Below, one piece after another: positions 9,058-24,105 of a DNA stretch of 64,000 nt. Every line of letters starts with the position of its first letter. Position 1 is the stretch's first letter. A program made the position numbers and the translations under genes. The stretch covers positions 1 to 64,000 of the IMG/VR virus record IMGVR_UViG_3300028833_000118, one strand, 5' to 3'. This DNA is from a virus (lineage: Duplodnaviria > Caudoviricetes). Below the pieces are notes generated by a model, which saw nothing but the letters and a program-made list of their open reading frames with translations, did no database searches and was not told where the DNA came from.

Positions 9058-9442
9058 CCCCTCTCACAATATTGATCGGCACAATACACGATCTCAAGAG
9101 CTGTAAATATTGCATACCATACACCGTCATACCATACTCGGCATTGACCGCTGTATTTGATGCCCCACCATTTGCAAAGCTAATACTGCTTCCACCATCT
9201 GACACACTCGACGCAACGAAACTATTTCCGATTTTTCCGAGCGCGCCAAGAGAATTTTCACCATATCCGGCCATCTTCAACTTGTGACAAATCAGCAACG
9301 CCTTGGCACGCTCATACATCTTCCCAAACTGTTTTTTGCTCACCATTGGGCTTACAAACTCATCCCAAGCCATAATCTCTTCATCGGTCATATCATTGAA
9401 TTCATCTCCAGATATTAACCTTACCATCTCAATGACCGTCAC
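9032..9442 (-). CDS. Head-tail adaptor (DUF4054-like)
   Basis: ALLICHKL...[12 protein letters not shown]...[14 protein letters not shown] pattern; position after the capsid gene. Confidence 0.7.
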
Positions 9443-9457
9443 GGCTCATTCCCCCTT

Positions 9458-9781
9458 TTACTCAGCCGCATCCTCCGACTTCTTGGAACGGCTTCTTGTG
9501 GCTTTCTTCTTGGGCTCTTCGGCAACCTCTTCAACAGGCTCTTCTACAGCCGCCACAGGCTCCTCTGCGGGCTTTTCTTCCAAAACCCGAATACTAACAA
9601 ACCCGCGGTTCTCAAGAGCCTTGAGGCCCGGAAGCAGGGCTTTCTTGCCCGTATCACGTCCGTTCTCATCGAACACCGCACAATAGGCATCTTTATCCTG
9701 CACATTGATCTCACGATCCGGCAATACAGACTTTCCCGCAATACCGATAGGACGATTGGACTTGTTGAAAACGACAATCAT
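9458..9781 (-). CDS. Small virion-associated protein with charged tail
   Basis: 107 aa between capsid and adaptor genes. Confidence 0.55.
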   Translation of the reverse strand: MIVVFNKSNRPIGIAGKSVLPDREINVQDKDAYCAVFDENGRDTGKKALLPGLKALENRGFVSIRVLEEKPAEEPVAAVEEPVEEVAEEPKKKATRSRSKKSEDAAE

Positions 9782-13051: not shown

Positions 13052-15877
13052 TCACGGCATCTTCATCGACTTTACCACCATGCGCCCATCAAAATGACCA
13101 CGACAATCATAATATGAATTGCAAGAATCATTGCGCTTCCCTATTTCCGTTTTCCCGACCTGACGAATAACAACATGGGTCTCATAACAAACATAATACT
13201 TATCTCCCCATCTGTTTTCCCTGATTCCTCGTTCTCTTATGGCCGGGGTAATATCTTTTTCCTCCCTGATATAACCACCACTAATCTCTTTGGAAGAAAC
13301 AGAAACAACCTCAAATTCTCCACAACTTAAATATTCTTGCTGTTTATATCTCGACAAAGCAGATATATCTAACGCATTCGCTCCGGGCTCCAATACATAA
13401 TGTATCTTGTCCCCGAACTTACTCGCAGATAGATCCTCTTCAACATCAAGGCTCGCCGTAAACGAAGTCGGGGCATCCATCTTTATTCTATCTCCGACTT
13501 TCGGCGGGACATACGGCTTTTGATCCCCACGTTTGAATATTCTCCTGTCACTCGTTACCCTATACAACTCCCGATCATACGGTTTGCTGTTATTGATTAT
13601 TCCGATTACATTTACCATTCCCTCTGCCATATTCGCTTCGCTGCTTTTGAGCCCTTGTCCCTTCCACAAATCACGAATTTCATAGAGGTTTCCATTGGCA
13701 TATTCTCCAATGGTCATTGCATCAACATCTTTAATTCCTTCTTTTACAACCTCTTCGGCAGCGGCTCTTTGTTCGGCATAACCACCTTCTGTATAAAGAA
13801 CAATACTGTCAACCACATTTTTGAATTCCGGATCTTTCTTTGCCTTTTTTACAATGCTTTTTCGATCCATCGTTCCAATATCTTTCGCCCACTCTTCACA
13901 TTTCTCTTTATCTGCGGGCTTTATATCAGTGACCATTCCTGCCTCATCCGAACTACCTACGAACCGAACCGGCGGATAATCATACATTTCCATTGCTGCC
14001 CCAACGTCATGGGCTACAAGTTTATCATCGAGTTTTCTCATCCCATGCTTGTTTGTGATGGCCCACTCATTATCCCCTGTTTTCTCAAATAATAACGTTC
14101 CCCTCACAACAAGAGCCCCAACAGGGAGACTTGAAACAAGCTCCTCGCATTCCTTCCTCGCCTCATTTTGCCTTTTCTCAGACTCTTTAAACGGTGTTGG
14201 GTCATAATCCTTCGCCTTATAATTGACTCCTCTTTGAAAGGCCTCTTCTTCCAATACCCTTCTTCTTATATCGTCGAGTTTCGTTTGTGCCTCTTTGATT
14301 TGGTCTCCACTGAGCACGGTTCTCTTGACTTCCACACCCTTCGCAAGCCTCTTTTTGGTGGCACCAACAGATTCCCCACCCGACATTTTGCTAATAACAT
14401 GTGGGTTCCCCTTATCAGGCTCCCCTTCTTCATTCAAATGGACTTTGTGCCCATTTTCCGTAGTTATCCAACGCCCCTCTTCGGTTTTCGCATCCAATCT
14501 TTTTTGTCTGCGTTCCCTAAAACCATCTACCCTTTTCTTCTTTTTATATGCTTCCCAAGCAGAATCAACATCCTCGACGGCTTCTGCATCCTTCGGCTTG
14601 AATCCTCCCCATTCTCCATCCCGAAACTTTATCTGCTCATCATCGCTCTCGAAATCCTCAAGATGTTCCTCTAACCACTCATCCCACGCGGCATCCATAT
14701 TAACCGCCATGCCGCCCGGATAGAGCTTTTCTTTTTCGCCAAGGTCACTATCCAACTCACCCTCAAAAAACGCGCTGTCGCCGTTCTGGGCTTTATGCAG
14801 GGCCGTCATCTGCCCTACGCTACGCTGAATACTATCTATGCACCTCTCAATAACCTTATCGGCTATCTCTTTATCCTTTTCACTCTTACTCGACGCAAAC
14901 AACTCAATCCTCTCTGCATCCTGAATTATTGCATCAAGCAGATCCTCATCTATACTGAATTCCGGTTCAATGATTTTTGACTCAGCATAATCCTCGAACG
15001 CCCATTTTACCGGATCGGCCCACTCCCAATCTCCAGACTTTTTTACATCCTCTTCATCTGTTCGACCGACCGGGGACAACTTCCTCGGAATCCAGATCTC
15101 GGCCTCTCCCACGGCTCTCATCGATCCATAGGTATCTATCGGCCTGACCTCTGCCTCTATGATGTTCCCATTCTCTCCGGCAAAGTGTTCCGCCATCTTT
15201 CTATCAAACGTATAGGCATCGAACACATCATCCTTGATATGCTTCTGCCCTTTTTCTCCCCGATATACCTTGATGGGCGTTACAAGAAACTTTTCAAACG
15301 AAACAGGCTTATCTATGTTATTCCGATAATTCTCATACGCCAAATTCAAACCCGCATTACGCATCTCCGGAGAACTCAGAATCGCATTTGTCAATTTAGG
15401 CTTATACGAACTATCCGCATTCCGAAACCACCCATCATAAAGGCTCTGCGTCACATACGGCGAATCATATATAACCTCATCCGCTTCATCTTGCGATATG
15501 GGATGAATGTCTTTTGTGGTATCCTCCATCCGGAATTTATACCACTCATCATCTATCGCCTGACCTCCGCCCTCATCATACAGATCCTGTAACTTATCTA
15601 CATTCTTCCTGATCCAATCATTTTTATCATCATCCGGCTCAAACTCATAATCCACTCGATTCGGTGACATTTCTTTTGAAATGCTCATCTTTTTGCTTTT
15701 CGGCAGATTACGCAACTTATCCGGGCCACTCTTTATATTTTTCTCGTCATCGACTAATACATGGGTTCCGCCAATCGTGATCCAATCTTCATCCATCCTT
15801 TTCTTCAATCTATCCGCCCGGCGCTTACGATATTCAATTACAGACAAATCAGCGATAGCTATCGCCCCCCTGACCAT
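13052..15877 (-). CDS. Leader-bearing multidomain protein with two putative ADP-ribosyltransferase domains
   Basis: 941 aa; VYRG...AYT...GEAE and LYRV...TSFT...QQEY are R-S/T-E patterns; Arg-rich leader at the N-terminus and repeated internally. Confidence 0.65.
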   Translation of the reverse strand: MVRGAIAIADLSVIEYRKRRADRLKKRMDEDWITIGGTHVLVDDEKNIKSGPDKLRNLPKSKKMSISKEMSPNRVDYEFEPDDDKNDWIRKNVDKLQDLYDEGGGQAIDDEWYKFRMEDTTKDIHPISQDEADEVIYDSPYVTQSLYDGWFRNADSSYKPKLTNAILSSPEMRNAGLNLAYENYRNNIDKPVSFEKFLVTPIKVYRGEKGQKHIKDDVFDAYTFDRKMAEHFAGENGNIIEAEVRPIDTYGSMRAVGEAEIWIPRKLSPVGRTDEEDVKKSGDWEWADPVKWAFEDYAESKIIEPEFSIDEDLLDAIIQDAERIELFASSKSEKDKEIADKVIERCIDSIQRSVGQMTALHKAQNGDSAFFEGELDSDLGEKEKLYPGGMAVNMDAAWDEWLEEHLEDFESDDEQIKFRDGEWGGFKPKDAEAVEDVDSAWEAYKKKKRVDGFRERRQKRLDAKTEEGRWITTENGHKVHLNEEGEPDKGNPHVISKMSGGESVGATKKRLAKGVEVKRTVLSGDQIKEAQTKLDDIRRRVLEEEAFQRGVNYKAKDYDPTPFKESEKRQNEARKECEELVSSLPVGALVVRGTLLFEKTGDNEWAITNKHGMRKLDDKLVAHDVGAAMEMYDYPPVRFVGSSDEAGMVTDIKPADKEKCEEWAKDIGTMDRKSIVKKAKKDPEFKNVVDSIVLYTEGGYAEQRAAAEEVVKEGIKDVDAMTIGEYANGNLYEIRDLWKGQGLKSSEANMAEGMVNVIGIINNSKPYDRELYRVTSDRRIFKRGDQKPYVPPKVGDRIKMDAPTSFTASLDVEEDLSASKFGDKIHYVLEPGANALDISALSRYKQQEYLSCGEFEVVSVSSKEISGGYIREEKDITPAIRERGIRENRWGDKYYVCYETHVVIRQVGKTEIGKRNDSCNSYYDCRGHFDGRMVVKSMKMP

Positions 15878-15878
15878 C

Positions 15879-16835
15879 TCAATTTGACCTCGCTCGCTGT
15901 TGCATCAACATCACTTCTGCCGTATCACCCTCGAACACGGGCTTCGCCGTACACCTACATCCATATGCTTGGCCCGGGTGTAGGTATCTCCCTGTATAAA
16001 CAATCCCCTTGCTCTTGGTTACATACCAATCGGCAGGGGGATTATTCCAACTGAAAATCTTGTTGTTCAACTCTCTATGGCACGGTCTGACCCTTGAATC
16101 ATGTCTTGCCGTCCACTTATATTTATCTACACCGAGACTTTTGTGTTCATACTCGGTCATATGACAATTTAATGTTCCCATCTGATCCGTGGCAATCTGC
16201 TTCGCATGGCTTCTGGTCATACCGACAACCTTTTCCAACCTACGATACACATTGATCCTCGGCTGATGCGTCGTATATCCCCATACGATAATCTCATGAA
16301 CCTTCGACAACGCATCCTGCGTCAACGAACTAATATAACTCACACTGTCCGCAACCCACTTGTTCATAAGATCTTCCATCGTCTCCATATAGAAAGGCTC
16401 GCTTATTTCTCCACCCATCGCATCATCCACAAGGCTTTTCCAATCCCTCACAGACGATCTCTGAGCAATCTTTCCAACCCTTCCCACTTTACGAATCAAC
16501 TTGGTAACATCGATATCCTTTAAGATATCCTCTTCGCACTCCGACAAGATCTCTCCGATCCCATCATCCATGTTTAAATCCGCATCTAATCGAACATTCT
16601 CATCCGACCATACATCATATATGGCCTTTACCCTCTCAATTGCAGGCCGTAATCTCTTCCCAATTACAACCGCAACCTCAAGAGCTACCCTTGCCAACTC
16701 TCTCTCCGCTGACATGGGGAATACCGGTTTTCTTCTCGGTATCTTTGCTCCCTCAGAACTCTCTACGGGAGAACTCTGCATCATTCTTGTTCGTATTTCC
16801 GGCACATTTACAATTGCCGCTACGCCCATCTGCAA
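15879..16835 (-). CDS. MuF / SPP1 gp7-like head morphogenesis protein, short form (likely start 16829)
   Basis: IATDQMGTLN, YKW...DSRVRPCH and HPGQAYGCRCTA motifs; no C-terminal toxin extension. Confidence 0.9.
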   Translation of the reverse strand: MQMGVAAIVNVPEIRTRMMQSSPVESSEGAKIPRRKPVFPMSAERELARVALEVAVVIGKRLRPAIERVKAIYDVWSDENVRLDADLNMDDGIGEILSECEEDILKDIDVTKLIRKVGRVGKIAQRSSVRDWKSLVDDAMGGEISEPFYMETMEDLMNKWVADSVSYISSLTQDALSKVHEIIVWGYTTHQPRINVYRRLEKVVGMTRSHAKQIATDQMGTLNCHMTEYEHKSLGVDKYKWTARHDSRVRPCHRELNNKIFSWNNPPADWYVTKSKGIVYTGRYLHPGQAYGCRCTAKPVFEGDTAEVMLMQQRARSN

Positions 16836-16910: not shown

Positions 16911-17213
16911 TTATTTATATTTTAACGGGTCGAACTCCCAATCTCCGACTCTCGCTATCTGTCCCTCTTCGATTACACTCTGGTCGAAATCCTCCAGAAT
17001 ATCGAAATAATCTTTTCCGATCTCATCCACACCTTTTCCATTAATCAATGCGGACAAAACCTTGATTTTCTTCCCGAGCATCTTATCACTTTCCAGATCG
17101 AAATATTCACGAACCCCATCATCGATTTCGGCGGCTCTCGAATAAAGATCCTCGACCTTTTCTCTCATCTTCCAACGCTTTTCATACTTCTCCGCCAAAT
17201 CCATATCACTCAC
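16911..17213 (-). CDS. Small acidic partner (candidate immunity) protein
   Basis: 100 aa overlapping the stop of the zincin-bearing gene. Confidence 0.5.
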   Translation of the reverse strand: MSDMDLAEKYEKRWKMREKVEDLYSRAAEIDDGVREYFDLESDKMLGKKIKVLSALINGKGVDEIGKDYFDILEDFDQSVIEEGQIARVGDWEFDPLKYK

Positions 17214-18522
17214 CCCTCAATCTCTTCACTATCGCAACAATTTCTTCATTCAACTTTTGGGCAATCTCTGGCTTATCTCTATCGAACACTTCTGCCAACT
17301 TCGGGTTCGTTGCCTTCAACGCCACATAATCGGCAATCATCTCAATCGCCTTATTCCCTTTATCACTTCTGAAATACCCCTGCGAATGCCCGAATTTGAC
17401 GATTCCAGATGCCCTTAATTGCCCTCCACTCAATGAATCATACAACCCCTGCAAACTCGCCACACCATGCATCAAAGACTCTCTTCTAACAAGGTTCTCT
17501 TCTTCGACGGCCTTTCTCACCTTTTTTATCTCTTTCTCATATGCTCTTATGTCCGACCCAGACATTCCAGATCTAAGCATCCCCGAATAATCCGCCACTC
17601 CATCATCTCGCAACCATTCCGGCCTCTTTCCATACATCCTCTCAGCCGCCTTGAACGTCGCTTCAATTTTGTCCTTCTTCTCCTGATTCCTTAATTCATC
17701 ATACTTGTCATTATATTCTTTGAACAGATTTCCGGTCTCTTTGCTGAATGCCCCATTATCTGCATCTATCGCATTTAAAAGATCTTTGTTCTCTGTCGAA
17801 AAATGACCATACTTTTCATTCTCTCTCGCACACAGATCTATGTAATGAGTCCACTCATGAGCGAATGTTCTGATCGCCTGTTCCTTTTGATCTGGGTCTT
17901 TTATCGCAGAGAAATTTGGAATCGTAACCGTTGTCTCGATCATTCTTCCATCTCGATACATCTTTGTGCTAACAGATCCAGATGTAGGCTTCGTTGTCCT
18001 TCTGCAACTCAATCCGGGCGGAGTTTTTGAACCCGGCAACGTCGCAGCGCTCAAGAACTCTGTTATTTCCCCATCATCACAATGCTCATTGATGAACTTG
18101 GCGAACTCCATCGTATTCTTTTCATAGGTCTTTGAGGTCATTACACTCGGGAAATGACTTCCTTCAATCTTCGTCACAGGCTTCTTTGCCTTTGACGGTT
18201 TCCCGGCTTTCCCGGTTTTCTTTAACTCCTTATATACCTCTCCGGCAGAATACCCTTTTCCTTCAAGGGCTTTCCACGCATCCTTCGGTGTCCACTTCGG
18301 ATCGACATTGATCCCTTCTCTCAGACACAAACCAAAAGGGATTTTCGTGTTCCCATGACCACCAGATCCACCACCCACATTATTCTGATTCTCATCCTCT
18401 TCCGCATCCATACGGGCGATCCATCTCTGGTCGCGGCGTTCTCTATAATCAAAGACAGCCTTGGCATCTAACCTCGACTGCCTCCGCTTTTTATATTCTG
18501 AAACAACATCCAACGAAAACAC
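17206..18522 (-). CDS. Leader-bearing zincin-type metallopeptidase (likely TTG start 18513)
   Basis: AHEWTHYID (HExxH) with distal EMIAD; double Arg-rich leader; RBS GAGGTG before TTG. Confidence 0.6.
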   Translation of the reverse strand: MFSLDVVSEYKKRRQSRLDAKAVFDYRERRDQRWIARMDAEEDENQNNVGGGSGGHGNTKIPFGLCLREGINVDPKWTPKDAWKALEGKGYSAGEVYKELKKTGKAGKPSKAKKPVTKIEGSHFPSVMTSKTYEKNTMEFAKFINEHCDDGEITEFLSAATLPGSKTPPGLSCRRTTKPTSGSVSTKMYRDGRMIETTVTIPNFSAIKDPDQKEQAIRTFAHEWTHYIDLCARENEKYGHFSTENKDLLNAIDADNGAFSKETGNLFKEYNDKYDELRNQEKKDKIEATFKAAERMYGKRPEWLRDDGVADYSGMLRSGMSGSDIRAYEKEIKKVRKAVEEENLVRRESLMHGVASLQGLYDSLSGGQLRASGIVKFGHSQGYFRSDKGNKAIEMIADYVALKATNPKLAEVFDRDKPEIAQKLNEEIVAIVKRLRGE

Positions 18523-19360: not shown

Positions 19361-19780
19361 TTATTCGGTCAAAATTTCGACCGCCTTTTTATATTTCTCA
19401 AGACGCTCCAAATCCATATCATTTACCACAGGCAACCTTGTGAGATCCATGTTGTGCTCCAAATCGGCAAGCTTCACCTTCCGAGCCAACTCATTCCCGC
19501 GAATTCCCTTGATATACTCCAGATACGGAACGCCCCTCTCATGTGTAATCACACGAACAGCATCGGCAATCTCGTCACCGAAAAGATCCCGAATCTCATC
19601 AATCGTCGCCCCAGTGTCCTCCACAGTGTCGTGAAGCCACGCAACGACCTTCTCTTTCTCTCCCAGAACTTTCCCGGCAACAGCCCTCGGATGCTCGATA
19701 TACGGCACTCCCGCCTTGTCTACTTGACCCCGATGCTTCATCTCAGCGAATTTCTCCGCCATCATCACAATGTCATTCAC
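19361..19780 (-). CDS. HD-domain small alarmone hydrolase (Mesh1/SAH-like)
   Basis: HRGQVDKAGVPYIEHP, WLHDTVED and VKLAD motifs. Confidence 0.9.
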   Translation of the reverse strand: MNDIVMMAEKFAEMKHRGQVDKAGVPYIEHPRAVAGKVLGEKEKVVAWLHDTVEDTGATIDEIRDLFGDEIADAVRVITHERGVPYLEYIKGIRGNELARKVKLADLEHNMDLTRLPVVNDMDLERLEKYKKAVEILTE

Positions 19781-19800
19781 ACTACCACCCCCACACCATG

Positions 19801-19830
19801 ATTATACCATGCTGTGAAGTTTCATGTCAA
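19801..19830 (-). promoter_or_regulatory. sigmaA promoter for the HD hydrolase
   Basis: TTGACA-18nt-TATAAT with TG extension. Confidence 0.75.
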
Positions 19831-19846
19831 CATTTTTAATGACAGA

Positions 19847-20134
19847 TTACCACCAAGGATATTTTCTTGTGGCTCCATCAGGCTTGGGTTTCGGGCTAAA
19901 CTCCGAAGTTTTAGGAAAACGATCAATCATTTTCTTCGCATACTCTTCCCAATAATCCTCATCAAGATCCCAATTTCCTCGCTGATCCAGAATCGTCTCC
20001 CAAGCATCGGCATCCGGCACCCACTTCTCATTTTTGTAATCCCACGCCTCTGCAACACAACTATCCCCATCAATTGCTAAACGCACGATATAGATGGGAA
20101 GAGTGCCATCCCGATAATACGCATATTTCTTCAT
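19847..20134 (-). CDS. Candidate immunity protein between synthetase and hydrolase
   Basis: 95 aa from ATG 20134 (GGAGGTG RBS); the ORF-track start at 20164 lies inside the promoter. Confidence 0.6.
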   Translation of the reverse strand: MKKYAYYRDGTLPIYIVRLAIDGDSCVAEAWDYKNEKWVPDADAWETILDQRGNWDLDEDYWEEYAKKMIDRFPKTSEFSPKPKPDGATRKYPWW

Positions 20135-20152
20135 ATTCTCACCTCCGCCATG

Positions 20153-20181
20153 ATTATACCACAACCGAAATCAAATGTCAT
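20153..20181 (-). promoter_or_regulatory. sigmaA promoter for the 95-aa gene
   Basis: ATGACA-17nt-TATAAT with TG extension. Confidence 0.7.
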
Positions 20182-20195
20182 CATTTTTGACAACA

Positions 20196-21404
20196 TTATT
20201 TCTTCTTTTTAAATGTCGGTAGATTCATGATTCCGGGCGGCTCGCTCATCTCATTCACATTATCCACCATCGTTTTCTCTAAACGGTCATACTCATCCTT
20301 CATCTCCGGATGCTCTTTGAGATCGATTGCCCTCTGCTTTTCAAAATGACGATGGTTTTTGTTCTTGACTTTGATAGTTTCCTCAGACTGGACTTGCACC
20401 TCAAACAACTCACCGCTAGGAGCTTTTACTTGTAGATGAACAGCCTTATAATTCCGGGGGCCTCCCTTGGGATCGGGGAGGAACTTGTTATCTCTTTCAG
20501 TAATCTCATACCCAGACTTTTTTAATTCATCTTCCAATCCGGTTATCTGATCTACCATCTTATCATGATCGCACTTGAAAGAAAACCTCACAACATCATC
20601 CATCATCCCCAACGCTTCTTCATCCGTGAGGTTTTTATCTGCATACTTTTTCTTGACCTTATCGATCTTTCTTGCGGTAGATCCTCCACCCTTGAACATG
20701 TTTTCAAGCCCCATCATACGAGAACCGAGCTTATTGCTGATCTCCACCATATCGGCACCGATCTTTTTTCCACCCTCTATTCTCTTATCATAAGCCGCTT
20801 GAACTTCCGGCCCTTTCCCAATGACTTTTTTATCCCACATTTGAGACAATCCGGGAATTGCCGCGACAACAGTTCCATCCGGATCTTTCTGATACACCAG
20901 ATCCTTACTTGTGAGGTTTTTCAACACTTCTTCCTGCTGTTTCGTCTTTGACGGCTGGTTTCCATCTCCGGCCTCATCAGCAAGACGATTAACCTCTTTC
21001 AAGGTATCCTCATCATATACCGCTCCACGCTTCGGCTTCGGATAATCCACTCCACCACTTGTTTTAAACGACTTGGTATAAGTGCTGCCCCTCACTTCTT
21101 CATTCTGCAAATTTCCATTCTTTACTTTCTTCGGCCCATTCTCTTCTTTCTTACCGCCATTCTTCTTTCCATTGAGTTTATTCCAAGCCTCAAACGCATC
21201 ATCCACAGACATTCCTTCTGTATCTACACCATTCGACTTTAAAGCTCCGAACACCCACCCGATTCCGGCATCCATTCTCTCTCTCAAACGTCCCTCACGA
21301 CGCTTTTTATACTCTTCCACACTATCGAATTGGGGAATAACCCCATTCTTCTTTTCAATTCTTTCCTTCCTACGGGCTTTATATCTTTTAACGGCGTTGT
21401 CCAT
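20196..21404 (-). CDS. Leader-bearing RelA/SpoT-type nucleotidyltransferase (small alarmone synthetase-like)
   Basis: FKGGGSTARK, DDVVRF, NYKAVH and EVQV motifs in canonical order; double Arg-rich leader. Confidence 0.8.
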   Translation of the reverse strand: MDNAVKRYKARRKERIEKKNGVIPQFDSVEEYKKRREGRLRERMDAGIGWVFGALKSNGVDTEGMSVDDAFEAWNKLNGKKNGGKKEENGPKKVKNGNLQNEEVRGSTYTKSFKTSGGVDYPKPKRGAVYDEDTLKEVNRLADEAGDGNQPSKTKQQEEVLKNLTSKDLVYQKDPDGTVVAAIPGLSQMWDKKVIGKGPEVQAAYDKRIEGGKKIGADMVEISNKLGSRMMGLENMFKGGGSTARKIDKVKKKYADKNLTDEEALGMMDDVVRFSFKCDHDKMVDQITGLEDELKKSGYEITERDNKFLPDPKGGPRNYKAVHLQVKAPSGELFEVQVQSEETIKVKNKNHRHFEKQRAIDLKEHPEMKDEYDRLEKTMVDNVNEMSEPPGIMNLPTFKKKK

Positions 21405-23521
21405 TAAGACTCACCATCCCAAGAATTTTTGTTTTCCGAAATACCAGACTCGGCCTTTTTCTTCAAAATATCCAGACCATCTTTAAACGGCTTAAACAAC
21501 CGGTCATCCATCACATACAGATCTTGTAGATCTCTCCACACAGGCAAGGCCATCTCTTTTCCATCGCAATCCGGCTCTCCCTTGAAATCTGTGCAGAGGA
21601 AAATATGACTTCTCAGATGTTCCGCATTATCCCCTCCAACTTTTGTTTCATCTCCGGTCTCCAACTTGCTACCGATACGAACCAGATCTTTGGGGATAAT
21701 ATTGAATTCCTCAAACATCTCTCTAATTGCCGCTTCCTCGGGGCTCTCTCCCTCTTCTATGTGACCTCCCGGCCCTCCGATCAATCCAACACCTTTGCCC
21801 TTCAACCTTGTTCCGGTAAGGACTTTTCCATCTTTAACAACAATAACGCCGACTCCACCGAGCCGACGCTTTACATCCTCTTCATCCTCTTCGACTTCTT
21901 TTTTTACCTCAGATCCCTCAGAAGCCGTCTCTTTGCCATTTTCGGGCTTTTCCCCTCCACCTATATTCGGCATTTGAGGATTTCCCTGAGCCCCTTCTGG
22001 TGCTCCTCCTGGCATTCCTCCGGGTGCTCCGCCTCCAGGCGCTCCACCCATCATACCCATCATCGCTGCCATCGGATCTTGCTGTTTATTCGCCGGATCA
22101 TTCTCTTCGAGCTCTTCATCGGTATAATCATCCAACATCGTCTCAATATCGAACTCACCATCATCCGCGAGTTTCTTTCTTATCTCAGACGGATCTACTG
22201 CCTGCATCTGCACATAGATATTCGCTGTATTGGCATTCGTCTGGGCAACCTGAGCTTTCTGCAGATCCAACGCAACCTTTTCCTGCTCAGACATAGACCA
22301 CAACGAATTGAACTCTACATCCAACGGAGGAACTTCATCGATCTCATGATTATGCAACCCCGCCTTTGACAGCACAGCCAAAACATACCGCAGATTACTC
22401 TTTACCATCCTTTTCTGGATTCTCTCTACATAATTGTAGTAATTCTCCAGATCCGAACTACCCGTTGCGTTCATTCCCGCAGGAGAACGACCGAAAAGAA
22501 TTGTCTGCGGAATATTCGTAATCGCAGACAGATAATTGCACGTTGTATTGATTACATCCGAAACCCCGGCAAAAGAGAATGATTTAAAATCATAATCCTC
22601 ACCATCGGCATCCAGAACGATACTGTTTAGCAGACCTCTCGCCAGATCTATAATCTGCAACCGCTTGAGAACATTCGCCTCTCCCTCGTCGGTTGCTAAC
22701 TCCAACGCCAAATTCTGCATTTTATAAATCGCCTGAATAGACCGATCCAACATCTTCGGTGCCATTCCATGAGCAACTTCAACATCTTTTACCGCTCTGT
22801 GAATTCTCAGATATTCCGGGATGCCCCACAACTGATAAATCGAATTAACCGATCTCTCCGGCAATCTCCCATTCTGGAATATCAGGCATCTCGACTCATG
22901 AACCGTAAACGTCCCATACTTGCTCGTGACCATATATGTCTCAGGCATACCGAACCGACTTCCACGAACATTGTACGGGTCTCGGCTCTCATACTTGTAC
23001 ATACTCGAATAATCCGGCACAAGCAACGACCGATCATATATCTGAATCTCATCCAGAGACTTAATGTGTTTCCAATCCAACGGCTCTTCCAGGCCACGAC
23101 CATCATCAATAAGCATTACGCCAATTGATCCGCCAAACAATCTCGCCCACTTGATCCCGAGCATGAACTTCTCTTCCCAATCGAGCTCATCCATGCACTT
23201 ATTATAGAAATCCTTGGTCTTTCCATCCGCCAGATCTTTTATTTCAAAGCCGTGCTTAATAGCCTCTTCCGCGGGGAGATCTATGATCCTCGAAAACAGA
23301 CCATTTCCCTCATAGAAAAGCTCAAGCTCATCATCCATCACCGGATCTTCGGCTTCATAATGATAATGTTCAGATGAATCTCTCTGCGTACCATAATTGG
23401 TCAACAGATTTACAAAACCATCTTCACGATACGGACGCACAGAATGGCCCGTCTGCTTCTCCAATACCTTGCCGCTCTTATCCGCGAACTCGGAGAAATC
23501 TATTACCGCTTTATCAGCCAA
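21404..23521 (-). CDS. Portal protein (DUF1073 type) fused to a C-terminal Nudix hydrolase
   Basis: Y..NGLFSRIIDLPAEEA, RLFGGS and PQTILFGRSPAGMNATGSSD portal motifs; Nudix box GHIEEGESPEEAAIREMFEEFNI. Confidence 0.9.
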   Translation of the reverse strand: MADKAVIDFSEFADKSGKVLEKQTGHSVRPYREDGFVNLLTNYGTQRDSSEHYHYEAEDPVMDDELELFYEGNGLFSRIIDLPAEEAIKHGFEIKDLADGKTKDFYNKCMDELDWEEKFMLGIKWARLFGGSIGVMLIDDGRGLEEPLDWKHIKSLDEIQIYDRSLLVPDYSSMYKYESRDPYNVRGSRFGMPETYMVTSKYGTFTVHESRCLIFQNGRLPERSVNSIYQLWGIPEYLRIHRAVKDVEVAHGMAPKMLDRSIQAIYKMQNLALELATDEGEANVLKRLQIIDLARGLLNSIVLDADGEDYDFKSFSFAGVSDVINTTCNYLSAITNIPQTILFGRSPAGMNATGSSDLENYYNYVERIQKRMVKSNLRYVLAVLSKAGLHNHEIDEVPPLDVEFNSLWSMSEQEKVALDLQKAQVAQTNANTANIYVQMQAVDPSEIRKKLADDGEFDIETMLDDYTDEELEENDPANKQQDPMAAMMGMMGGAPGGGAPGGMPGGAPEGAQGNPQMPNIGGGEKPENGKETASEGSEVKKEVEEDEEDVKRRLGGVGVIVVKDGKVLTGTRLKGKGVGLIGGPGGHIEEGESPEEAAIREMFEEFNIIPKDLVRIGSKLETGDETKVGGDNAEHLRSHIFLCTDFKGEPDCDGKEMALPVWRDLQDLYVMDDRLFKPFKDGLDILKKKAESGISENKNSWDGES

Positions 23522-23697: not shown

Positions 23698-24051
23698 TTA
23701 TAGCTCATCGCTATATGCTCCCTCCATATAATCATACTCCCTACCTTCATCAAGGCTATCATAGAACGTATCCTGCTCTTCCAACCAAGCCTTGCCACTC
23801 TCACTTTCCACATTCTCATGATAATCCTTCACCTGTTTGAGAATCCGATCCTTATTCCTCTCTATGATCTCGATACATTTTTCATCATCCGGGTTTTCTC
23901 CACCCTTTGTGAACGTATCGAAATTTCTTCCAAGATTTCCAAACCAGATCCATGTCGTGATAACCTTCTCCGATTCCGGGTTGACTATCACATACGCCCC
24001 TCTCTTGAATTCATAAACAGGCAAATCATCCAACTTACCGATATAATTCAT
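23698..24051 (-). CDS. Small acidic candidate immunity protein
   Basis: 117 aa directly downstream of the 1077-aa cargo gene, with its own promoter. Confidence 0.55.
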   Translation of the reverse strand: MNYIGKLDDLPVYEFKRGAYVIVNPESEKVITTWIWFGNLGRNFDTFTKGGENPDDEKCIEIIERNKDRILKQVKDYHENVESESGKAWLEEQDTFYDSLDEGREYDYMEGAYSDEL

Positions 24052-24076
24052 TTTCTCACCAACCTTTTTTCTTTCT

Positions 24077-24105
24077 ATTATACACCAAACCTGGTTTTAT
24101 GTCTA
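24077..24105 (-). promoter_or_regulatory. sigmaA promoter for the 117-aa gene
   Basis: TAGACA-17nt-TATAAT. Confidence 0.75.

Follow-up and report, generated by a model that had tools for sequence, protein, structure and literature searches.

A leader-tagged alarmone synthetase with two putative immunity genes beside the portal gene of a temperate phage

Are the toxins that phages encode among their head genes carried inside the virion and delivered into the next host? Modules with the order Apk2, IapK/Tis1-like protein, and Aph1, in which Apk2 is a MuF polymorphic toxin and IapK is also called BcTis1, have been described for temperate phages (Bacteroides caccae, Streptococcus pneumoniae, Mannheimia haemolytica, and Pasteurella multocida) (PMC10083569, PMC12226406). 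MuF was proposed in the Apk2 work, without proof, as a capsid-targeting domain (PMC11699363), and according to these papers it is not known whether MuF toxins are virion-carried and injected (PMC10083569, PMC11699363). Here, we describe a locus that bears on this question, located at positions 19361 to 21404 on the minus strand of a 64,000-nucleotide stretch (hereafter, the window) of the IMG/VR virus record IMGVR_UViG_3300028833_000118, which is 89,387 bp long with a CheckV completeness of ~90%. Since the phage encodes a tyrosine integrase, outside the window, we consider it temperate. We propose, with a probability of roughly 0.62, that the locus is a counterpart of Apk2-IapK-Aph1 in which an N-terminal leader stands in place of MuF and the synthetase is probably loaded into the capsid. 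The module type is already known; what is new is the leader.

The locus consists of three genes, which, like all genes of the window, lie on the minus strand. The first is an open reading frame of 402 amino acids (aa) encoding the synthetase (20196-21404), whose ATG shares its A with the TAA stop codon of the portal gene (TAATG at 21404) and which has no promoter-like site ahead of it. The second encodes a small protein of 95 aa (19847-20134), with its ATG at 20134 and the Shine-Dalgarno sequence GGAGGTG upstream, and the third encodes a 139-aa Aph1-type HD-domain hydrolase (19361-19780). Sigma-70-type promoters with an extended -10 element precede both of the latter genes: P1 before the small gene (20153-20181; ATGACA, 17 nucleotides, TGgTATAAT; 11/12) and P2 before the hydrolase gene (19801-19830; TTGACA, 18 nucleotides, TGgTATAAT; 12/12). 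Over the full 64 kb, the coding strand has only four sites scoring at least 11/12, compared to a mean of 1.0 in shuffled sequence; three of the four fall at 19.8-24.1 kb, and each of these three immediately precedes a small gene. A preliminary description of this stretch had reported a synthetase start overlapping the portal stop, a 95-aa gene between synthetase and hydrolase, and separate promoters for the last two genes; the coordinates, start codons, promoters, and shuffle comparison together confirm this three-gene arrangement and argue against a chance pattern.

The C-terminal domain of the 402-aa protein is an alarmone synthetase with a SYNTH fold, closest to SaEAS and next to Tas1/Apk1. 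It spans aa 100-402 (20199-21107) and comprises an N-terminal subdomain (~aa 100-182) and an Apk1/SaEAS-type SYNTH fold (~aa 183-402). With phmmer, the single protein matches SaEAS (PDB 8vx3) at 1.2e-4, and an exhaustive phmmer search retrieved 1,121 relatives of the synthetase. A 59-sequence profile searched against the PDB finds 8vx3 at 6.8e-28, Tas1 (6ox6) at 4.2e-5, and long Rel enzymes weakly. In NCBIfam, aa 215-397 match the C-terminus of XopAD at 3e-16, a region reported to be Rel-like (PMC12691689), and phrog_7625 (annotated as "head morphogenesis") matches the protein at 1.2e-10 over profile positions 321-472 of 504, the last third of the profile. An AlphaFold2 (AF2) model has a predicted local distance difference test score (pLDDT) of 90 overall and 95-98 over aa 110-400. 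When this model was searched with Foldseek, 8vx3 was the best match (E 1.3e-9, template modeling [TM] score 0.81, root-mean-square deviation 2.3 Å), followed by Tas1 6ox6_A (1.4e-5, TM 0.60), then RelP/RelQ, and then CapRel (TM 0.25) and long Rel enzymes; there were 28 PDB matches at E≤1e-3, and all among the matches listed are RelA/SpoT-homologue synthetases. The RelA/SpoT-type assignment made in the preliminary description is therefore borne out by profile, family, and fold. The subdomain at ~aa 100-182 is well folded in the AF2 model, has no counterpart in SaEAS, and is clade-specific, being conserved even where the N-terminus differs.

Five synthetase motifs were tested (RxKxxxS..K, DxxxR, YxxxH, ExQxR/Q, and HxxY/F), and all of their residues are present except the first Arg of the first motif, syn1. 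K238, K246, D270, R273, Y319, E335, and Q337 are invariant in the 59 sequences, whose identity goes down to 25%, while at least 90% of them retain H323 and H351. Judged by these retained residues, the domain is predicted to be catalytically intact. The opposite view, that it is a degenerate remnant with only a structural or cargo-filler role, would fit the lack of a Pfam match and the missing syn1 Arg, but is very improbable given that the catalytic Lys, Asp, Arg, Tyr, His, Glu, and Gln persist in at least 90% of these sequences, most of them without exception, and that two immunity genes with conserved promoters are kept beside the domain in diverged loci.

The third gene offers the best available clue to what the synthetase might make. 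The best PDB match of the HD protein is the (p)ppApp hydrolase Aph1 (7smg, 3.1e-26 over the full length), and it matches phrog_990 at 1.4e-50; MESH1 enzymes follow at 2e-10 to 2e-11 and the hydrolase domains of SpoT/Rel at 2e-11 or weaker. An HD hydrolase is thus present, as first described, and its label is refined from Mesh1-like to Aph1-like. Aph1 carries the signature D24, R96, D116, R119, K133, and Y134, and the double mutation D24R + R119A lets it hydrolyze ppGpp as well (PMC10083569). Five of the six signature residues are found in the HD protein (D24, D116, R119, K133, and Y134, corresponding to D21, D112, R115, K129, and Y130), and all five are invariant in six loci. By this signature and the 7smg match, the HD protein is specifically Aph1-like, a predicted (p)ppApp hydrolase that would act as enzymatic immunity. 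The toxin product had been judged unreadable from the synthetase sequence, and we agree; since the hydrolase retains the signature, including both specificity residues, (p)ppApp is favored as at least one product.

The 95-aa protein is the probable cognate immunity protein, acting by binding, as suggested by its position and its covariation with the toxin. Its gene lies directly 3' of the toxin gene in every related locus. In loci whose toxin is 55-64% identical, the small protein is 67-68% identical; in the other loci, it diverges together with the toxin. It has only nine database relatives, all homologues share the start MKK, and its AF2 model has a pLDDT of 89. One related locus, L007, has two small genes in tandem (9192-9683), paralogues of 88 and 72 aa, between toxin and hydrolase, compared to one elsewhere.

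To place the cassette among its relatives, we scanned IMG/VR viral contigs with an alignment of the closer homologues (A2), which returned eight loci (L001-L008); with the single protein as the query, the same kind of scan found no relatives. L002 and L003 have the layout of the window, with portal, toxin, small gene, and HD gene in that order, and in L001 the same cassette directly follows MuF. In L004-L007, it lies between thyX and another leader-tagged gene, upstream of terL. In L008, portal, NUDIX, and synthetase form one 972-aa polypeptide; a 91-aa gene and MuF come next, and an HD gene is absent. Across the loci that carry it, the HD protein remains 60-66% identical to that of the window. 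Toxin identity to the window drops from 64% to 36%, and that of the small protein goes from 68% to values that blastp no longer detects; hhalign still connects the small protein of the window with that of L003 (89%), but with those of L004 and L008 only weakly (9% and 5%). This contrast between a conserved hydrolase and a co-diverging toxin and small protein matches the published contrast in Apk2 systems, in which the immunity protein that binds is specific to its partner, whereas the hydrolase is interchangeable or universal (PMC12226406). Searches elsewhere added nothing: tblastn of the synthetase domain against 50,697 GenBank phage records gave no match, GTDB species genomes scanned with alignments A2 and A3 contained no relative, and a metagenome scan returned only the L001 contig and no further locus.

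The private promoters are conserved as well. An equivalent of P1 is present in L001 (10/12), L002 (11/12), and L003, L004, and L007 (12/12 each), and an equivalent of P2 precedes the HD gene in L002 and L003. In several loci, we also observed the element ATGTTG(T/C)(C/A)A.AAA a few bases upstream of the -35 of these promoters (window 20182-20200 and ~19831-19845; L002 9240-9262 and 9610-9632; L003 7520-7541 and 7778-7800), and at P2 of the window it overlaps the -35 itself. Candidate roles for this element are operator, UP-like element, and tandem -35.

How might a synthetase without MuF reach the capsid? Its N-terminus carries a double leader, as the preliminary description had noted, and this leader is Arg-rich: there are two matches to the motif [YF]xx[RK]RxxR[LIM], one at aa 8 and one at aa 32, and both copies are retained in close homologues. 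Copy 1 (aa 1-20; 21345-21404) is an Arg-rich helix with the motif YKARRKERI, modeled by AF2 as a helix over aa 2-20, and copy 2 (aa 25-46; 21267-21332) has the motif YKKRREGRL, is modeled as a helix over aa 28-47, and ends at an RMD-A junction. A helical adaptor follows (aa 47-78; 21171-21266; GIGW...G.DT.GM...EAW; pLDDT ~83-90), and then a disordered linker rich in Gly, Lys, and Asn (aa 79-99; 21108-21170; pLDDT ~41-45, and below 50 for aa 80-98), whose length and sequence vary among homologues. Seven other proteins of the window have N-termini that align with copy 1, and Y8, R11, R12, and R15 are invariant across all eight; these proteins are otherwise unrelated, and their genes cluster around the packaging and head genes. 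All leaders close with a conserved R(M/F/L)D junction, a possible site of processing.

The leader and adaptor also occur with other cargo. In the metagenome protein P0027, the double leader and adaptor (65% identity over ~85-94 aa) are attached to a Zeta-toxin kinase domain, and in P0026 (55% identity over a similar ~85-94 aa) to another C-terminal domain, whose match to HD-CE is weak and below threshold; the adaptor is conserved in both proteins as it is in the close homologues. In its distribution over an alarmone synthetase, a Zeta toxin, and other cargoes seen so far, the leader module behaves as a polymorphic-toxin carrier does. We give even odds to the broader idea that the duplicated leader serves as a general tag by which interchangeable toxins are addressed to the capsid, from which they would be injected.

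The same toxin domain is found on further carriers. Among the matches of the exhaustive search, it is fused to Phage_portal_3 in three proteins (P0089, P0097, and P0140, the last with NUDIX), to Phage_Mu_F in five proteins by Pfam and seven by our own hidden Markov model, and to Phage_min_cap2 in two. In a tree of 164 domains, the window toxin falls in a clade of 24 (Shimodaira-Hasegawa-like approximate likelihood ratio test [SH-aLRT] 98%), of which 17 are leader-tagged, with the MuF and portal forms outside this clade and about six origins needed for the portal fusion. This tree was a quick, architecture-labeled search that did not include named FaRel, PhRel, CapRel, and Apk2 references, so placement against the named subfamilies rests on ranked PDB profile scores, fold scores, and the architecture labels. 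Since the toxin is found either on three capsid-interior proteins or on a leader shared by eight head-region proteins, the simplest account is that all of these are routes into the capsid.

From these observations, we infer a course of events that would run from packaging and ejection to the nucleotide product and its neutralization. The 402-aa gene would be read with the late head genes, having no promoter of its own and starting on the portal stop codon, and the synthetase would therefore be made at the time of procapsid assembly. The leader would direct it to the procapsid interior, doing the job that fusion to MuF, the portal, or the minor capsid protein does in relatives, and it would leave the virion together with the DNA. 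In the cytoplasm of the recipient, it would use ATP to pyrophosphorylate the 3'-OH of ATP/ADP, and possibly that of GTP/GDP, so that (p)ppApp would be made, ATP drained, and growth arrested. The 95-aa protein would bind the toxin as its cognate inhibitor, and the 139-aa Aph1-type hydrolase would degrade the toxin product. Both antidotes would be read from constitutive promoters of the host type; such promoters would allow them to shield the lysogen, to shield the producing cell during late expression, and to end the toxin pulse early after infection.

Several findings weigh against this reading. The Pfam RelA_SpoT family (PF04607) does not match the 402-aa protein even at E≤10, and is just reached by more distant members of the same phmmer family (P0091 and P0098). 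As the preliminary description correctly noted, the first motif is atypical: syn1 reads MFKGGGS, lacking its leading Arg (Met here, Cys in most close homologues), although K238, S242, and K246 are retained. In the hydrolase, Aph1 R96 is replaced by G92, a position not among the five Aph1 residues given as near the active site (PMC10083569). The cassette of L004-L007 lies outside the head-gene block, though adjoining other leader-tagged genes. The 95-aa protein has no Pfam match at E≤10, no PDB match with phmmer (6ox6_B was not found), and no Foldseek match, and PF24154 (Tis1_ImmP) finds nothing in the phage genome at E≤10. A VIA-align search placed Tis1 (6ox6_B) third among 48,161 chains, but its Z of 3.9 is tied with unrelated chains; the alignment has an rmsd of 3.5 Å and the longest coverage (64/76 residues). 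In the ESM Atlas, the nearest Pfam-bearing cluster to the small protein is Tis1_ImmP, at a low score of 0.75. Homology of the small protein to Tis1/IapK is a weak lead rather than a result.

The hydrolase genes themselves provide one further point on the negative side. Viral contigs commonly carry Aph1-like HD genes (at least 467 loci). For 68 of the best 80 of these (L011-L090), no synthetase domain was detectable in the 1.5 kb upstream; six of the 68 have little upstream DNA. The remaining 12 have such a domain, which is leader-tagged in three, MuF-fused in four, preceded by another N-terminus in four, and bare in one. Because 68 of the 80 lack a detectable upstream synthetase, the hydrolase alone is not diagnostic, and we rejected it as a marker of the cassette.

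Instead of being packaged, the module might act only inside the cell that encodes it, as a late-expressed or prophage toxin-antitoxin or exclusion system (host shut-off, prophage addiction, or superinfection exclusion), in which case the Arg-rich leader might bind nucleic acid or scaffold or regulate the enzyme. A free-standing toxin gene, unfused to a structural protein, would be consistent with this, as would immunity genes under constitutive promoters like those of prophage morons, the position of the cassette in L004-L007, and the precedent of toxSAS toxin-antitoxin modules with hydrolase antitoxins (PMC7229694). Against purely intracellular action stand the recurrent fusions of the toxin domain to the portal, MuF, and minor capsid protein 2, all of them capsid-interior components, and the occurrence of the leader on eight proteins that are otherwise unrelated and cluster near the packaging and head genes. 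The toxin also lacks its own promoter and is coupled to the portal gene, and no PADLOC defense model matches any of the three cassette proteins. Together, these points make action confined to the encoding cell unlikely.

A different doubt concerns chemistry rather than delivery. The enzyme might not make (p)ppApp but act as a tRNA 3'-CCA pyrophosphokinase like CapRel, FaRel2, and PhRel2, or as a (p)ppGpp-only synthetase like VpEAS and AaEAS, with the HD protein reversing that reaction. The synthetase motifs do not reveal specificity, as a swap of syn2-4 left that of Apk2 unchanged (PMC12226406), and (p)ppGpp is the sole product of some members of the exported-synthetase clade (PMC12691689); the atypical syn1 motif and the presence of CapRel among the fold matches would also be in line with another product. 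However, SaEAS and Tas1 rank well above CapRel in profile and fold (TM 0.81 and 0.60 versus 0.25), and a partner hydrolase with the (p)ppApp-specific signature of Aph1, including D24 and R119, would be pointless against (p)ppGpp. We consider another product improbable, and (p)ppApp synthesis by a capsid-loaded toxin remains the reading that we prefer.

How close, then, is the locus to systems already described? The earlier suggestion of a MuF-independent, leader-delivered counterpart of the MuF-Apk2 module, with its genes in the same order, stands in most parts: the order of synthetase toxin, small protein, and HD hydrolase is that of Apk2-IapK-Aph1, the identities of the first and third genes match, MuF is a separate 318-aa gene (15879-16835), and the leader is common to eight proteins; delivery by the leader is the part that is still conjectural. 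The toxin domains of the window and of Apk2 fall in one Tas1-related clade, and the partner hydrolase is clearly homologous to Aph1 and bears the (p)ppApp signature. As in Apk2 systems, a conserved hydrolase accompanies a small protein that changes along with the toxin, and some loci (here L008) have no hydrolase. Unlike Apk2, the window toxin has as its carrier ~100 aa of duplicated Arg-rich leader and adaptor, follows the portal gene and overlaps its stop, has the extra N-terminal subdomain, and sits in a clade of 24 that is mostly leader-tagged and apart from the MuF-fused forms; its small protein has no detectable sequence similarity to Tis1_ImmP. Since Phage_Mu_F has no match on the 402-aa protein and fusion to MuF is the defining feature of Apk2, the locus is not an Apk2 member. 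By analogy, it would work like Apk2 while standing outside Apk2 by definition.

Its closest relative in solved structure and in sequence is SaEAS of Streptomyces albidoflavus (PDB 8vx3; PMC12691689), which likewise attaches an N-terminal export signal to a stand-alone SYNTH domain. SaEAS differs in having a Sec signal peptide, no adjacent immunity genes, and an extracellular action, whereas the window combines a phage leader with two immunity genes. The type VI effector Tas1/Apk1 of Pseudomonas aeruginosa, with its partner Tis1 (6ox6), also has a (p)ppApp-synthetase toxin domain, an N-terminal carrier, and a small immunity protein downstream, but its carrier is PAAR for type VI secretion and it has no hydrolase; a likeness of the small protein to Tis1 is weakly suggested (the Z of 3.9 above). 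The internal proteins of phage T4 (IPI-III and Alt) bear capsid-targeting sequences, which the prohead protease removes, are loaded into the prohead, and are injected with the DNA. As in T4, a short N-terminal peptide is common to unrelated proteins of one phage, eight in this case; unlike the T4 sequences, to which it has no sequence relationship, the leader is a duplicated basic helix.

The comparison extends the list of delivery modules for exported alarmone synthetases. A published survey names Sec, LXG, XopAD, MuF, DUF4157, and PAAR as carriers, with no portal fusions or leaders of this kind (PMC12691689), and our loci would add both. The same toxin domain occurs on four head-associated carriers (the leader, portal, MuF, and minor capsid protein 2), and the layout of two antidotes with private promoters is kept across carriers, which provides strong comparative support for the capsid-cargo idea and makes the separable leader of ~100 aa a candidate packaging tag. 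If this is true, phages would have four interchangeable ways of solving one problem, namely leader tags and fusions to the portal, to MuF, or to minor capsid protein, and phage alarmone toxins would be real virion cargo whose action in a new host is timed by immunity genes on host-type promoters.

The surrounding genes form a packaging and head block that runs from terL through a 1077-aa leader-tagged protein, a 117-aa gene, and portal-NUDIX to the three-gene cassette, and continues with further leader-tagged proteins, MuF, and then the scaffold, protease, and capsid genes. The portal protein (21404-23521, minus strand; Phage_portal_3, PF06381, 6.4e-75) carries a C-terminal NUDIX domain (PF00293, 5.8e-16), and this part (21407-21904, minus strand) is closest to MTH1/MutT-type enzymes. 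In L008 (10-2928) and in P0140, the portal-NUDIX protein is extended by the alarmone-synthetase domain as a single polypeptide. A 438-aa leader-tagged gene and an overlapping 100-aa gene (within 16911-18522, minus strand) form a pair that is conserved in L001, L002, and L007, and a 941-aa leader-tagged gene (within 13052-15877, minus strand) immediately follows MuF.

Directly after the 1077-aa leader-tagged gene, the 117-aa gene (within 23698-24105, minus strand) lies behind a promoter of its own (TAGACA, 17 nucleotides, TATAAT; 11/12), and a strong terminator is located 3' of it (23584-23553). The two genes look like a second pair of cargo and immunity, and L002 has a matching layout with a 121-aa homologue.

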